From a virus (lineage: Duplodnaviria > Heunggongvirae > Uroviricota > Caudoviricetes): DNA of 32,870 nucleotides. The translations under genes were made by a program, and so were the position numbers. The DNA lies in IMG/VR virus record IMGVR_UViG_2737471818_000001; one strand, written 5' to 3'. Under the pieces are notes generated by a model. The model did not search any database, was not told the DNA's origin, and saw only the letters and a list, made by a program, of their open reading frames with translations. This document shows, piece after piece, positions 1-32,870 of this stretch. Within the stretch, counting starts at the first letter, position 1. The number at the start of each line of letters is the position of its first letter.

Positions 1-261
1 ATGTCTATCAGTGAAAATGATATTGCTGTTGGTGGAGTATACAAAACCCCTGGAAACCAAGAGCGCGTGGTTCTAGCAATGGAGGATGGAAAAGTTAAAT
101 ACGCTTCTCGTGGAGGAAACGTTCAGAATCAATTCGATCGCATGGATAAATGCGAACCGGCTAGATTTGCGAATGCTTGTTCTTCAAGGATTGCTGATTT
201 GCCTAAAGAAAAATTTGAAGAAATCCAAACTCTTTTTAAAAGTAGAGGATTAATTAGTTAG
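1..261 (+). CDS. hypothetical protein, 86 aa, low GC; lies outside the prophage on the ogr side
   Basis: Complete ORF in the track beginning at base 1; AT-rich codon usage unlike the phage backbone; no recognisable motif. Confidence 0.35.
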   Translation: MSISENDIAVGGVYKTPGNQERVVLAMEDGKVKYASRGGNVQNQFDRMDKCEPARFANACSSRIADLPKEKFEEIQTLFKSRGLIS

Positions 262-4871: not shown

Positions 4872-5342
4872 GATGGTTTCCGCTTCGTTGCAGCGCCTTG
4901 TCGCGCCATGTCAGGAGCTCGGTCACACTCAGGGAATGTAACTCTGATGGCGGCCAGTGGAAAATCACCGCGATATCCGCCATCAGGTCATCGACCGACA
5001 GGTTTTTCGGAAAGGTCAGCGACCCGAAGCAGGCGACAAAAAACCGACCACCTTCCCGGCCAGCGAAATCAGATCAGACGCATCGAGACGCGTGACCTCG
5101 TGCTCAGTCAGGGCGGGATACGTCATGCGCGGCAGCACTTTAATCAGCGCATCAACGTCAGAATTCGCCAGCGAGGCCAGCGACACCCCGCGCAGGGTTC
5201 CGGCATTCGGTTTGGTCAGCGTGACCTGTTCAATTTTCTGCTCACCGCGCATCAGTGGGGTGTCAAAAATCACCACATTCGGATTGACGGTTTCAGTGTC
5301 AGTAACGGCAGTTTCATTGATATTTTTCATGGGTATTCTCAT
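4861..5342 (-). CDS. E': E+E' fusion product made by a programmed -1 frameshift at TTTTTTG (5037-5043)
   Basis: Slippery heptamer lies in the E frame (GGT TTT TTG); the -1 frame continues ...FHWPPSELHSLSVTELLTWRDKALQRSGNHHEQ to a TAA at 4861-4863 overlapping the T start, the P2 E/E' arrangement. Confidence 0.65.
5016..5342 (-). CDS. E: Tail assembly chaperone E (zero-frame product); start at 5342 or the internal ATG at 5330
   Basis: MKNINETAVTDTETVNPNVVIFDTPLMRGEQKIEQVTL resembles P2 gpE as recalled; sits directly upstream of T. Confidence 0.8.
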   Translation of the reverse strand: MRIPMKNINETAVTDTETVNPNVVIFDTPLMRGEQKIEQVTLTKPNAGTLRGVSLASLANSDVDALIKVLPRMTYPALTEHEVTRLDASDLISLAGKVVGFLSPASGR

Positions 5343-12429: not shown

Positions 12430-13359
12430 ATGGAAGTAACATTAAGCTTGAAAGATATTACGTCAATTATTGCAATAATCATCTCTCTTATTGCATTATA
12501 TTTTGCCGTAAGTAATTATAGGCGAAAATCCGGCACTCATATAAGAGGTCAATTTTGTATAAGTGAAAGTATAAACGCTGAAGACAAATACATCAGCAGT
12601 ATTACTTTGGAAAATTTCAAAGACAAATCCGTTATAATTTTCAAGATCTTCCTAAGAGTTGGAAGTAACTATTACATAGAGATTGATGACTTCGAGCGAG
12701 CCCCAAAAATACTAAAACCGTATGAATCCTATACTAATAACTACGACCCCGTGGATTTTTACTGTTTAAACATGAATCGTATTAATCTTAACAAACTTTT
12801 GAATTCAAAAAAAACAAAGATTAATATTGTGCTATCCACCTCTCATGGTAAGTATGTGGTAAAAGAATGGATAAATCTGTGGGATCCCATATATGATTTT
12901 TTCAAAAACCATATGACAGCTTATATCATCCCAATGACACCCATTGAAAAGGTGGGGTATTTTGGCTATAATTTCAAATACTTAGTCAAATTAAAAACTG
13001 AGGATGGATATAAAGAAACCATTCCAATTTATTCTAGTGACATTAATTACCCCAGGTTTAATAAATTTAGACTAACAGTGGAGTCACTTTCATCACGTGA
13101 AAAACTTGAAGACTTCCTAATAAATCAGATGATAATCGGAAATCTTAAATGTACTGATATTGAAGTTATCGACGCTGAACAACTAAGAAAAAGAAGTTAT
13201 CACCACGAATTTAAAGAAGAATATGAAGCAAAGCACTATAGTCTATTTTTCTATTTAGTTATTGGGAGACTATTAACCGTCTTTAGCAACATCAGGCTTC
13301 ACTTCATCAACCTCAAAAACAAAAAAAAGAGAAAACAATCCAACAATACAGACAGATAA
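12430..13359 (+). CDS. Low-GC cargo protein, 309 aa, with an N-terminal transmembrane anchor; function unknown
   Basis: ATG at 12430 preceded by AAGGAG (12411-12416); hydrophobic helix ITSIIAIIISLIALYFAV; Lys/Asn-rich; strongly AT-rich relative to flanking V and S; opposite strand to the late operons. Confidence 0.7.
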   Translation: MEVTLSLKDITSIIAIIISLIALYFAVSNYRRKSGTHIRGQFCISESINAEDKYISSITLENFKDKSVIIFKIFLRVGSNYYIEIDDFERAPKILKPYESYTNNYDPVDFYCLNMNRINLNKLLNSKKTKINIVLSTSHGKYVVKEWINLWDPIYDFFKNHMTAYIIPMTPIEKVGYFGYNFKYLVKLKTEDGYKETIPIYSSDINYPRFNKFRLTVESLSSREKLEDFLINQMIIGNLKCTDIEVIDAEQLRKRSYHHEFKEEYEAKHYSLFFYLVIGRLLTVFSNIRLHFINLKNKKKRKQSNNTDR

Positions 13360-13378: not shown

Positions 13379-13425
13379 GTAAGATGTGAACAACCATTAA
13401 ATCGTATGAATTGCTCACATCTTAC
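13379..13425. terminator. Hairpin between the cargo gene and S, possible bidirectional terminator
   Basis: Inverted repeat GTAAGATGTGA(ACAA) ... (TTGC)TCACATCTTAC with a loop of about 17 nt, placed between two convergent genes. Confidence 0.4.
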
Positions 13426-23266: not shown

Positions 23267-24823
23267 CTACTTACCAGAGAAAAAGCCAACCGGCCAATTT
23301 TGTAGGAAACCATTCTCGTCAAAATAAGATTTCTTAACTATGGTCTGCTGCTTTTCATCTTTTTCAAATACCAGTATTGAAATATCATCCTGTGAAAGAT
23401 TTTCATTTTCCTCAATATATTCACCAAGTGCTTCAATCATGGTCTGGCTATGTGTCTCAAAAATTATCTTCAAATCCACATTGTTTTCTTTTGCTTTAGT
23501 TACTACTTTTGCAAAAATACTTGCTAAATTATGTTGATATGACGGATGTAAATGCAATTCTGGCTGCTCAATGATAAATGTTATAGGTTTTCTAACCGTG
23601 GTAGCACGACGTTCTGTCTCAAGCCAAATGGCTGTAACTATCGGCAAAACCTGAGAGTAACCAAACCCCATATCACTAACATTATAGTTCTCACTATTTT
23701 CACCGGTATTTATTAAAATTGCAAAGTGAGAGCCACTTTGTTCAACCTTAATAATGAAATCAAAATTTAACTTTGTCCAATCTTCAAATTTTGATTTATC
23801 AGCCGGCCTTAATGAATTCAAAAGCATTGCAAGATTGGAACCAGTATGATCTATCTCATTAACCTGTAAATCTTGAAAGCGATAAAATCTTTCTGATGTA
23901 GCACGCAGTGGAGCTATGTACTTTACATTTCTGAATGAATCTGACAAGGATGTATTTATTATATCTATAAGATTATTAATATTCCATCCAATTATAAATG
24001 GATATAACTCATTCATTATTTCATCATGTTGAAGTTCAAAGTTTCTACTAAAAACTTTTTGTTCCTTGAATAGAAAAGCAACTAATTTACTAGCGTACGC
24101 TTTGGGTATAAAGCCAATTCTTTTGAATGCCTCTGTCACTTGATTTATATCAGATTTAGTATGGAAATATTTCTTTATATATTTCGCTGCTGAATCAATA
24201 AATGACAATTCTAATGCCCTGTCATGCCTAGAATGTCTCAAATAGAATGATGTGCTTGGAGGAGGACTATCTTCCTTACCCTTCAAAATTAGATTGGGTA
24301 TGAACTGCCCAAGATTTTTAGCTATTATCCCATCACGCTCTATTGTTTTATCATCTGATTCAATGAGTAACTTAACATTACTGTTCTCATCCATTGAAAT
24401 AAATATTGTTAAATCAGCCAATATAAGCTTAATCGTTTTTGTTTTTGTTTTTTTATCTTTAGAGTAAACAGTCAACTCTGCTTCAACATCTGTTGGTTGC
24501 TTTGCTAAATCAGTAAAACGATAATATGTATATCTTTGTGAAACCTCTGGCGGAATTGAGAGTGAAAAACTGAACGTAATTTCTTTTTTTTCAGAGTTTC
24601 GGGAAAGTACATCTGTAAAATCGCCAAAATCCACATATCGCCCATACCATAGTATTGGACCAGTAGTATTTTCTTCTACAGATTGACGAAGTAAAGGAAA
24701 TGTACGCAATAGGGAACTTTTACCACTGCTGTTCTTACCAACAAATACTGTAATTGGTTTTAAATCAATAAAAGTTTTGTTGACAAAGCTCCTGAAGTTT
24801 TGAAGACCTATACCCTTAATCAT
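23267..24823 (-). CDS. Cargo OLD/ABC-type ATPase (AAA_15/AAA_21-like), about 518 aa from the ATG at 24823
   Basis: Walker A VFVGKNSSGKSSLL; Walker B/D-loop FIIEQPELHLHPSYQ; H-loop ETHSQ; long insert between them. The track ORF extends to a TTG at 24895 that overlaps the cos-like site; the GGAG-preceded ATG at 24821-24823 is the likelier start. Confidence 0.8.
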   Translation of the reverse strand: MIKGIGLQNFRSFVNKTFIDLKPITVFVGKNSSGKSSLLRTFPLLRQSVEENTTGPILWYGRYVDFGDFTDVLSRNSEKKEITFSFSLSIPPEVSQRYTYYRFTDLAKQPTDVEAELTVYSKDKKTKTKTIKLILADLTIFISMDENSNVKLLIESDDKTIERDGIIAKNLGQFIPNLILKGKEDSPPPSTSFYLRHSRHDRALELSFIDSAAKYIKKYFHTKSDINQVTEAFKRIGFIPKAYASKLVAFLFKEQKVFSRNFELQHDEIMNELYPFIIGWNINNLIDIINTSLSDSFRNVKYIAPLRATSERFYRFQDLQVNEIDHTGSNLAMLLNSLRPADKSKFEDWTKLNFDFIIKVEQSGSHFAILINTGENSENYNVSDMGFGYSQVLPIVTAIWLETERRATTVRKPITFIIEQPELHLHPSYQHNLASIFAKVVTKAKENNVDLKIIFETHSQTMIEALGEYIEENENLSQDDISILVFEKDEKQQTIVKKSYFDENGFLQNWPVGFFSGK

Positions 24824-30477: not shown

Positions 30478-30747
30478 TTAAGACCCTAAGCCCAACCACA
30501 TTAGCCACCCTTCCCTAATCGCTTTCGGACGGCTTTCATATGCAAGTTTCATTCCGTTGTTCCAGGCAGGGAGATAGACCCAATACTCTCCAGCACGGCC
30601 AGACGCTGACTGAGGATCTGTCATTTCAATTACTGGCAATTTTCCCTTATCAATCATTCCCTTTACGGCACGCTCCGATTTGCCAATCAGTCTTGCAAAC
30701 TCCTGATATGGCACTGCCTCTGTTTGTAACGCGATTTGCTTCGCCAT
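30478..30747 (-). CDS. cox: Cox (excisionase and repressor of the lysogenic promoter), 89 aa
   Basis: Close similarity to P2 Cox as recalled (...PYQEFARLIGKSERAVKGMIDKGKLPVIEMTDPQSASGRAGEYWVYLPAWNNG...). Confidence 0.9.
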   Translation of the reverse strand: MAKQIALQTEAVPYQEFARLIGKSERAVKGMIDKGKLPVIEMTDPQSASGRAGEYWVYLPAWNNGMKLAYESRPKAIREGWLMWLGLGS

Positions 30748-30812: not shown

Positions 30813-30863
30813 TCTAAACACAAAACTATCTACATCTAAACTGAATGGTATTGAGATCTAAAC
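30813..30863. promoter_or_regulatory. Immunity switch: three direct repeats of TCTAAAC at 22-bp spacing between cox and C; candidate C-repressor operators
   Basis: TCTAAAC at 30813-30819, 30835-30841 and 30857-30863, inside the 119-bp divergent cox-C intergenic region. Confidence 0.55.
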
Positions 30864-30866
30864 ACT

Positions 30867-31166
30867 ATGTCAAACGCGTTAAATGAAAAACTTGTACTCA
30901 TACGCAAGTCTGAATATCTAAGCAGGCAGCAACTTGCTGATTTAACAGGAATTCCTTACGGAACCTTAAGCTATTACGAAAGTGGGCGTTCGACCCCCCC
31001 CACAGATGTGATGATGAAAATTTTGAAGATGCCTCAGTTCATGAAATACACACTTTGGTTCATGACTGACCAAATTTCTCCTGAATCCGGGCAGATTGCA
31101 CCGGCACTCGCACACTTTGGGCAAGAAACAACAAACTCGCAGCACTCAGACCAAAAGACTGGTTAA
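30867..31166 (+). CDS. C: Immunity repressor C, 99 aa
   Basis: Close similarity to P2 C as recalled (MSN...EK.VLMRKSEYLSRQQLADLTG.PYGTLSYYESGRSTPPTDVMM...). Confidence 0.9.
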   Translation: MSNALNEKLVLIRKSEYLSRQQLADLTGIPYGTLSYYESGRSTPPTDVMMKILKMPQFMKYTLWFMTDQISPESGQIAPALAHFGQETTNSQHSDQKTG

Positions 31167-31280: not shown

Positions 31281-32288
31281 ATGACAATTAAGAAGCTCGA
31301 TGATGGTCGATACGAAGTGGACGTTAGACCTGCAGGGCGCAACGGAAAGCGCATCCGCAGGAAATTTGACAAGAAAAGTGAGGCTGTAGCTTTTGAGAAA
31401 CACACTCAATACAACCATCACGATAAAGAATGGCTGGCTAAACCGACAGATAAGCGGCATCTGTCTGAGTTAACAAAAGTCTGGTGGGATCTGAAAGGTA
31501 AGCATGAAGAACACGGAAAATCCAATTTGGGTAAGATTGAAATATTTACTCGGATCACTGATGACCCTTGCGCATTCCAGATAACCAAAGCGCTTATTAG
31601 CCAGTACAGCATGACTCGCAGAGGGCAAGGCATAAAACCGGCCAGTATAAACCGCGACCTTACCTGCCTGAGTGGCATGTTTACTGCACTAATTGATGCG
31701 GAGTTGTTTTTTGGTGAACATCCTTTCAGAGGTATGAAAAAGCTCAAGGAGCAGAAACCAGAAACCGGATATCTGACGCAGGAAGAAATAACATTGTTGC
31801 TTGCCAATCTTGACGGGGACAACAAGAAAATCGCGATTCTCTGTCTAAGTACCGGCGCTCGATGGGGTGAAGCTGCGAAACTGAAAGCTGAGAACGTAAT
31901 ACAGAATCGGGTGACGTTCGTTAAAACAAAGACAAACAAACCGCGCACTGTCCCTATCTCTGAGGAAGTAGCTGTAATGATTGCGGGTAAGGGTTATCTG
32001 TTCCCTGATGCCTCATACCCGAAGTTCAGGCGAACAATGAAAGATGTAAAACCGGATCTACCGGACGGGCAAGCAACTCACGCATTGCGTCACAGTTTTG
32101 CTACCCACTTTATGATTAACGGCGGGAGTATCATCACCTTGCAGAGAATACTGGGACATTCACGAATAGAGCAGACAATGGTCTATGCGCACTTTGCCCC
32201 GGAGTATCTTCAAGATGCTGTTTCCCTCAATCCGCTACGTGGTGGTGTTGACTCCCAGAGTGTCCACATAATGTCCACGCTGGAGTGA
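31281..32288 (+). CDS. int: Tyrosine integrase, 335 aa
   Basis: Close similarity to P2 Int as recalled, including C-terminal HALRHSFATHFM...LGHSRIEQTMVYAHF; GGAGG ribosome-binding site. Confidence 0.9.
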   Translation: MTIKKLDDGRYEVDVRPAGRNGKRIRRKFDKKSEAVAFEKHTQYNHHDKEWLAKPTDKRHLSELTKVWWDLKGKHEEHGKSNLGKIEIFTRITDDPCAFQITKALISQYSMTRRGQGIKPASINRDLTCLSGMFTALIDAELFFGEHPFRGMKKLKEQKPETGYLTQEEITLLLANLDGDNKKIAILCLSTGARWGEAAKLKAENVIQNRVTFVKTKTNKPRTVPISEEVAVMIAGKGYLFPDASYPKFRRTMKDVKPDLPDGQATHALRHSFATHFMINGGSIITLQRILGHSRIEQTMVYAHFAPEYLQDAVSLNPLRGGVDSQSVHIMSTLE

Positions 32289-32370
32289 TTTGTAGTGGCT
32301 TTCAGTGGTCTTGCGTGCCGCGCAAACCCGCATTGCACCGCTGAAAGCCCCTGTTGTAGGGGTATAAAAA

Positions 32371-32394
32371 CGCCCTTACACGGGCTTATTTTTT
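32371..32394. other. Candidate attR core, P2-type
   Basis: CGCCCTTACACGGGCTTATTTTTT is the reverse complement of AAAAAATAAGCCCGTGTAAGGGCG, matching the P2 attP core as recalled over about 22 nt; lies ~85 bp downstream of int. Confidence 0.55.
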
Positions 32395-32552
32395 ATGCAT
32401 AAGCCCTATCCCTGGTCACCGTCTTCCATTGACCACATCGATAGAATCTCCCTTCATAGCACGATGCCTTTCACGTAACGGCATCGTGCTCGCACAGGTT
32501 CCGGCTAAGCACAACCAGAACGCGCATGTTTGACGCTTACCAAAAAATATTC

Positions 32553-32870
32553 TCACTCTCCACATTTGAATGTCAGACGAGCGACGCCATGTAATCCTGC
32601 ACCTTCTGTCTTCAGGTCAACTATCTGCATTTTTTTGCCCTGAGTAACACAGAAATGGGCTGCATCATTTTTTACTATATTTTCTGCACCAGATATTCTG
32701 CCCCTGGCTAAAGAAGCTTCGGCTTCGGTGTAGTATTGGTTATCGAGTTTACGCTGAATATTACTTTTATATGCAAGACCAAATTTACCGATACTTGTCT
32801 CATCATTATGCACAGCACAACCAGACATAATAAAAATACTAATTAATGATATAGCAGCTATCTTTTTCAT
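32553..32870 (-). CDS. Putative lipoprotein, 105 aa, outside the prophage on the int side
   Basis: Signal peptide with a lipobox-like ...FIMSGC; low GC; start codon at the last three bases of the window. Confidence 0.5.
   Translation of the reverse strand: MKKIAAISLISIFIMSGCAVHNDETSIGKFGLAYKSNIQRKLDNQYYTEAEASLARGRISGAENIVKNDAAHFCVTQGKKMQIVDLKTEGAGLHGVARLTFKCGE

Follow-up and report, generated by a model that had tools for sequence, protein, structure and literature searches.

A conserved inverted repeat in the probable Cox-binding arm of a P2-like prophage attachment site, and a neighboring host palindrome in the cyaR–yegR spacer of Escherichia coli

The window, by which we mean the whole stretch of 32,870 nucleotides analyzed here, corresponds to a P2-like prophage of Escherichia coli and ends at the int-proximal junction with the host chromosome. 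Over the last 671 nt it matches E. coli EC11 at 100% identity, and the same junction was found in 809 complete genomes, with yegR as the flanking gene. From left to right, this end contains cox (30478–30747, minus strand), a C-type repressor gene (30867–31166, plus strand), int (31281–32288, plus strand), the two inverted repeats considered here (IR1 and IR2), and yegR (32553–32870, minus strand). The int gene, taken from the list of open reading frames and ending with its stop codon at 32286–32288, encodes a P2-type tyrosine integrase with Pfam Int_N and Phage_integrase matches that is 85.5% identical to P2 Int, and cox encodes the recombination directionality factor and Pc repressor (Pfam Phage_Cox, E = 1.2e-41). 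yegR is a host gene, annotated in E. coli genomes as encoding protein or lipoprotein YegR, for which no Pfam match was found. In EC11 the other prophage end lies just beyond the window and abuts cyaR/yegQ, and the cyaR copy at that far end scores 100 bits in Rfam. K-12 carries the P2 remnant PR-X (ogrK, yegZ) at the equivalent site between cyaR and yegR, and cyaR is named among P2-type insertion sites in the E. coli W genome paper (PMC3032704). On these sequence comparisons the prophage is inserted at the 3′ end of the host small RNA gene cyaR.

Three further observations concern the genes of the element and its edges. The interval that separates cox from the repressor gene contains TCTAAAC as three direct repeats, at 30813, 30835 and 30857, with an exact spacing of 22 bp; because the two 8-bp operators of the P2 repressor, O1 and O2, are likewise 22 bp apart, the three copies are by analogy probably operators of the C repressor of this phage. 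An 86-residue open reading frame at window positions 1–261, between ogr and the cyaR-side junction, is hypothetical in EC11, gave no PHROG match and is likely to be a cargo gene. Several database records of “phages”, namely ON470606.1, AY639599.1 and many IMG/VR contigs (e.g., L098 and L113), overshoot the att core into the host DNA of IR2 and yegR. The possibility that yegR is itself a phage gene was considered and set aside, its sole matches being phrog_21109 and two records with host flank, which we treated as boundary overshoot; phrog_21109, the PHROG family matched by YegR, probably arose from such overshoot. Homologues of yegR were found in only ten species-representative genomes, and their context differs outside Escherichia and Shigella.

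The attachment sites annotated in the P2 GenBank record map onto this end of the window in gapless alignments, the Int P′ arm onto 32254–32280, the Cox region onto 32278–32351 and the attP core onto 32367–32394, where 26 of 28 positions are identical. The segment 32373–32394 (CCCTTACACGGGCTTATTTTTT) within the core matches the final 22 nt of host cyaR exactly, a stretch made up of the 3′ half of the cyaR terminator and the U-run. Comparison of the two EC11 junctions shows that the cyaR-side copy reads CCCTTACGCAGGCTTATTTTTT and that the int-side copy has the host form ACGGG, while phage contigs with an uninterrupted site have GCAGG. Because the int-side copy carries the host ACGGG and the uninterrupted phage sites carry GCAGG, we infer that strand exchange takes place within CCCTTAC (32373–32379). 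The 3′ end of cyaR in the lysogen (locus L001, 1366–1451, minus strand, outside the window) is phage-supplied; two positions of its terminator are not as in K-12 (ACGGG to GCAGG), with pairing kept and the Rfam score still at 100 bits. The spacer from the end of cyaR to the yegR stop (32395–32552) is found at unoccupied sites (L092 and L093) and in K-12. The crossover position assigns IR1 to the phage and all DNA from 32395 on to the host.

Both palindromes are real, and their positions agree to within 1–2 nt with those in the preliminary description of this DNA. IR1 (32297–32349) is composed of a 5′ arm, GGCTTTCAGTGGT (32297–32309, plus strand), and a 3′ arm, ACCGCTGAAAGCC (32337–32349, plus strand), and lies between the Int arm-type repeats (32261–32279) and the att core (32367–32394), starting 8 nt past the int stop. 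It is, as first described, a 13-bp imperfect inverted repeat just after int, though its loop counts 27 nt and not about 29. The sole position outside Watson-Crick pairing is T32306 opposite G32340, which makes a G·U pair on the plus strand, and flanking pairs extend the repeat to 16-nt arms with 88% complementarity in a repeat search. The RNA fold of 32294–32352 has an energy of −27.9 kcal/mol (z = −4.6), which none of 200 shuffled sequences equaled, and IR1 is conserved in many phages.

IR2 (32458–32490) consists of AGCACGATGCC (32458–32468), the spacer TTTCACGTAAC and GGCATCGTGCT (32480–32490), and is positioned in host DNA 62 nt downstream of the yegR stop. It forms a perfect 11-bp inverted repeat with an 11-nt spacer, which agrees with the preliminary description apart from coordinates that were off by one, and the absence of a following T-run noted there holds on both strands, where the stem is followed by CGCACAGG (plus) and AUGAAGGG (minus). 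Besides IR2, the 32.9-kb window contains no perfect inverted repeat of 11 bp or more whose loop is 15 nt or shorter, and the mean number of such repeats in 100 first-order Markov simulations was 0.1. The RNA folds of IR2 have energies of −20.6 kcal/mol on the plus strand and −24.3 kcal/mol on the minus strand, with z about −5. Neither IR1 nor IR2 is a chance palindrome, a reading excluded by the simulations, the shuffles and the conservation. Elsewhere in the window, further perfect inverted repeats of 10–12 bp with loops of 17–27 nt are found at 13379–13425, 23757–23797, 4944–4986 and 12780–12826, and inverted-repeat seeds of at least 10 bp number 9, against 0.9 expected.

It had been proposed that the palindromes might be an int terminator, arm-type binding structures or a REP-like element of the host. 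Closeness to int and att is the one point in favor of taking either repeat as a terminator of int, as a binding site of the Int arm type or for IHF, as a REP-like repeat or as a product of chance, and we regard this group of readings as very improbable. As to integrase binding, two direct Int arm-type repeats, TGTCCACA at 32261 and TGTCCACG at 32272 (32261–32279, plus strand), make up the int-proximal (P′) arm and overlap the final part of int, and they align to the annotated P2 Int P′ arm site with 22 of 27 positions identical. Matches to the family consensus of Int arm-type sites, tgTGGaCa (PMC3448106), occur at 32261, 32272 and 32430 only, outside both palindromes, so that neither was retained as an Int arm-type site. 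No match to the IHF consensus WATCAANNNNTTR was found on either strand of 32250–32560, and in P2 the IHF site, the P arm and the ogr terminator are positioned on the other side of the core. The comparison with Int and IHF sites of P2 attP that had been suggested as a check thus gave a negative answer, placing the Int arm repeats upstream of IR1 and the P2 IHF site on the ogr-side arm. What survives of the arm-type proposal is that IR1 belongs to a protein-binding arm of the attachment site; the Int or IHF identity does not, and the position coincides instead with the Cox region of P2.

The region that contains IR1 (32278–32351) is the homologue of the annotated Cox-binding region in P2 attP (protein_bind “Cox”, 24399..24472, GenBank AF063097), with 57 of 74 positions identical in a gapless alignment and with the same placement after the Int P′ repeats and before the core. 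A blastn search with 32240–32400 recovers P2 and its relatives (E = 3e-23). Identity to P2 amounts to 45 of 53 positions in the IR1 block, 4 of 15 in the spacer between IR1 and the core, and 46 of 59 in the last 59 nt of int. Each arm of IR1 carries one 9-mer with a single mismatch to the cox-box consensus TTAAA(G/C)NC(A/C), TGAAAGCCA on the minus strand at 32296–32304 and TGAAAGCCC on the plus strand at 32342–32350; the two are in opposite orientations, and P2 has the same inverted pair of TGAAAGCC(C/A) 9-mers. These are the only two cox boxes with at most one mismatch within IR1, and the consensus scan gave a third one-mismatch match and two two-mismatch matches outside it. P2 Cox is reported to give footprints of at least 70 nt, and the cox boxes at attP, six in number, to be “facing two different ways” (PMC3936717); a six-box series at 10–11-bp spacing was not recovered by our consensus scan, either in the window or in P2 itself.

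The protein presumed to bind the IR1 region, the Cox of the window, shares 83% identity with P2 Cox. It differs from P2 in the DNA-binding helix (Cox residues 20–36) by T25E, G26R, R29K and R30G, and the left half of the IR1 loop and its flanks also differ between the two phages. T25 was tied to DNA specificity in the P2 Cox structure paper (PMC3936717), and the window Cox has E25 at this position. These helix changes weigh against the Cox reading, as does the small number of close cox-box matches. The explanation we favor, and consider probable as a whole, is that IR1 belongs to a P2-type attP Cox-binding arm and also forms an RNA stem, while IR2 is host DNA, with binding by the Cox of this phage extrapolated from the P2 annotation. 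On this view, the int-proximal (P′) arm of the attachment site would have IR1 as its conserved core. Because the arm 9-mers point away from each other, Cox filaments could nucleate in both directions, and such filaments on the IR1 region would bend the arm, favor excision and block re-integration.

All IR1 carriers with sufficient flank encode a Cox that is 77–95% identical to that of the window, so the presence of Cox does not discriminate between Cox binding and a role in RNA as the reason for the repeat, and the types of recognition helix are more informative. At least three helix types, KSTGAVRRMID, KSERAVKGMID and KTPxAV(R/K)GMIE, are found among relatives with essentially the same IR1, and an identical P2-type IR1 occurs with two different helix types; therefore, Cox contacts may not be what conserves IR1. 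This constancy favors the possibility that the palindromy is selected mainly at the RNA level, with Cox binding overlapping or secondary, as a block to 3′-exonucleases, an aid to termination or a processing site that limits Int synthesis. Such a reading is compatible with the explanation favored above, and we give it somewhat less than an even chance. The stable fold of IR1 speaks for it, as does the placement of the repeat 8 nt past the stop codon and directly before a terminator-like hairpin.

Variation in the stem was examined in int-downstream regions gathered by two routes, Int homology and a pattern made from the IR1 loop, the second of which makes the conservation of the loop partly circular. 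The alignment holds 38 distinct variants, whose sequences are related and whose independent substitution events are few. On the int-sense strand, pairing is kept in 98.8% of stem cells across these variants, compared with about 90% on the opposite strand (counted from the pair table), and compensatory, G·U-tolerant substitutions confined to the int-sense strand speak for selection on RNA. Two stem pairs have changes on both sides, one as the series G-C (14 variants), G·U (7) and A-U (17), the other as a clean G-C to A-U swap in one lineage. A U·G pair alternates with C-G and U-A. The covariation score was matched by none of 500 column shuffles, though for related sequences with few events, and slid registers of the stem gave 35–52% pairing. 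By the pair-table count, seven of the eight single-step changes are wobble-compatible on the int-sense strand. The compensated pairs fall in the inner stem, outside the cox-box 9-mers, a further point for selection on RNA.

A palindrome of 13–14 bp that is unrelated to IR1 occupies the equivalent place in SEN4 and phiT5282H (loci L249 and L250, 1420–1458 in each), between TGTCTACA arm repeats and the core, in phages whose Int is about 52% identical to that of the window. Its mismatches are U·G pairs on the int-sense strand, and in relatives one of its pairs has changed from U-A to C-G, so that a non-homologous hairpin with an equal strand bias is found at an equal position. Because the IR1 stem is kept by compensatory and G·U changes, and because of this unrelated palindrome at the same place, IR1 probably folds as a stem-loop in the int 3′ UTR besides its presumed role in the Cox region. 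The variant data favor selection for folding of the int-sense transcript, within the limit set by the small number of independent events among related sequences. Against selection mainly at the RNA level stand, besides that small number, the near-invariance of 20 positions in the 27-nt loop, which is more than a hairpin kept for stability alone would require and is partly a sampling artefact, and the weak hairpins, or none, at the equivalent position in WPhi-type and P24A7b-type phages. Rfam likewise gave no family for IR1, with no match in the whole window at gathering thresholds or in 32200–32870 at E values up to 10.

The fold of 32289–32394 contains IR1 followed at once by a 13-bp interrupted hairpin (32350–32384), in which 32350–32354 pair with 32380–32384 and 32356–32363 pair with 32372–32379. 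This second hairpin with its tail, CUUAUUUUUU (32350–32394, plus strand), was located from the RNA folds and, with UUAUUUUUU, has the stem-loop and directly following U-run of an intrinsic terminator. IR1, which had been suggested as a terminator of int, does not fill this role, having no U-run after its stem and being directly abutted by the next hairpin. A U-run directly after the stem is lacking in IR2 as well, and a consensus terminator scan of 32289–32552 found nothing at either palindrome. The 3′ half and U-run at 32373–32394 are identical to those of the CyaR (RyeE) terminator, and the phage 5′ half at 32350–32363 is complementary; the 3′ end of CyaR in K-12 was mapped at the same U-run (Term-seq tables, MG1655: 2167199). 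The copy in the window differs from CyaR in being a hybrid at the int-proximal junction and not an sRNA gene, and it has no Rfam score, the full cyaR being at the other end. A hairpin with a T-run is found at a fixed 35–39 nt after IR1 in most non-P2 subfamilies, with 5′ halves that match the core of each phage; in P2 itself the 5′ half is lost.

The hairpin at 32350–32384 with its U-run is likely the best candidate for the terminator of the int/Pc transcript and a mimic of the CyaR terminator. The phage would supply the 5′ half (32350–32363), complementary to the CyaR-derived core, and so complete a terminator-like hairpin after int. IR1 would be transcribed as the first 3′-UTR element of the C-int mRNA, as a stem-loop just upstream of the true terminator. 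This arrangement resembles lambda sib in that a stable hairpin, placed within the att region and downstream of the integrase gene, could influence int mRNA. However, sib lies beyond the crossover and is parted from int in the prophage, whereas IR1 is on the int side and is linked to it in both states, and the continuous IR1 stem is only 13 bp, compared with the RNase III hairpin of sib. Retroregulation of the sib type was rejected for IR1, the hairpin not being distal to the crossover.

Of 5426 complete E. coli genomes, 5415 contain IR2, with a median of one and a maximum of two places per genome. It is present at the unoccupied sites of L092 and L093, where cyaR is followed directly by ATGCATAAGCCC, IR2 and then yegR, and in K-12 it lies to the right of the P2-remnant junction. 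A search for IR2 in genuine phage DNA gave, in the phage collection, only host-flank records and a weak match to phage 186. The 91 viral contigs with IR2, which were checked in part, include P2-like prophage calls in which IR2 lies about 120 nt from IR1 as host flank. As placed by these genomes, IR2 is a single-copy E. coli chromosomal palindrome in the cyaR–yegR spacer. The suggestion that it is a phage att-arm structure fails on its being host DNA, present at unoccupied sites and in K-12. The alternative suggestion of a host REP-like element is right as to the host; like REP/BIME elements, IR2 is a palindrome in the space between two convergent genes, but it cannot be called REP-like, because it occurs at one place per genome (median 1, maximum 2, in the 5415 genomes).

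IR2 would persist most likely as a relic, as the 3′ stem-loop of the convergent yegR transcript, or as both. Its position 62 nt past the yegR stop on the transcribed side, and the greater stability of its fold on the yegR-sense strand (−24.3 kcal/mol), are what would be expected if it were the functional 3′ end of the yegR mRNA, either as a non-canonical terminator or as a trimming hairpin for Rho-terminated transcripts. The pattern of variation is divided on this point. In about 160 sampled IR2 loci, the two commonest alleles differ in the loop only (CACGTAAC versus CACTTATC), and arms conserved in most E. coli around a variable loop agree with a functional stem; however, roughly one-sixth of the alleles carry an uncompensated arm mismatch, with no change on both sides and no strand bias. 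One Escherichia lineage that retains yegR is missing IR2, the palindrome has no U-run and is blank in the consensus scan, and in the MG1655 Term-seq tables no 3′ end follows that of CyaR before gatD is reached, although yegR may not be expressed in those conditions. We therefore regard a role at the 3′ end of yegR as rather unlikely.

The DNA between the cyaR end and IR2 contains a relic that resembles the ogr-side (P) arm of P2 attP. It spans 32412–32441 on the plus strand (CTGGTCACCGTCTTCCATTGACCACATCGA) and comprises CTGGTCAC...CATTGACCACATCGA, a 15-mer and an 8-mer identical to the P2 “Int P arm”, with side of the core and orientation both as in P2. A hairpin follows the P arm within 5 nt in P2, where it is the ogr/F-operon terminator, and IR2 follows after 16 nt in E. 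coli. In another Escherichia lineage (L087, 2076–2210), a replacement begins at the cyaR T-run and stops within 1 nt of the outer edge of IR2, with the DNA onward to yegR shared, and the replacing sequence resembles the IHF part of a P arm. Because of the P-arm-like relic and this replacement by another P-arm-like block, the block 32395–32490 therefore appears to behave as a cassette left by earlier P2-like elements.

A stronger form of the same idea, which we consider possible though on the unlikely side, takes IR2 as a functionless fossil and the whole of 32395–32490 as the leftover ogr-side arm and hairpin of an ancient P2-like prophage. The exact 15-nt and 8-nt matches on the correct side and in the correct orientation, the hairpin close behind the P arm of P2 itself, the swap of exactly this block for another P-arm-like block, and the polymorphic, uncompensated mismatches in IR2 are all consistent with it. 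Against it, sequenced phages have an IR2-like hairpin only as host flank, IR2 is without the T-run of the P2 terminator, and its near-universal retention in E. coli could reflect function. The preferred P2 site at cyaR thus seems, as the relic and the L087 block suggest, to have been shaped by earlier P2-like insertions and to be flanked by what they left behind.

With the att core (32373–32394) as the boundary of the prophage, IR1 is assigned to the excision-control arm of the phage and IR2 to the host. Going by sequence, both are largely ordinary: IR1 would be of a known kind, a P2-type att Cox arm, with added, unproven evidence for an RNA stem-loop, a hairpin and covariation aspect that is absent from the P2 annotation and from the Cox structure paper (PMC3936717), and IR2 an ordinary host palindrome. 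The part with some reach, if real, is a Cox-binding arm that is also kept as an RNA hairpin beside a terminator borrowed from CyaR. A bolder proposal, which we hold to be distinctly unlikely, is that in P2-like phages the C-int mRNA ends in a conserved, structured RNA, made of a stem-loop (IR1 or the non-homologous one of SEN4-type phages) and, directly downstream, a copy of a host sRNA terminator, which would control Int output or yield a stable 3′-UTR-derived Hfq-type sRNA with the near-invariant 27-nt loop as its seed, the same DNA being the Cox-binding arm. If this were true, recombination directionality and the fate of the int mRNA would be encoded in one 53-nt module, and a post-transcriptional layer would be added to a classical recombination module.
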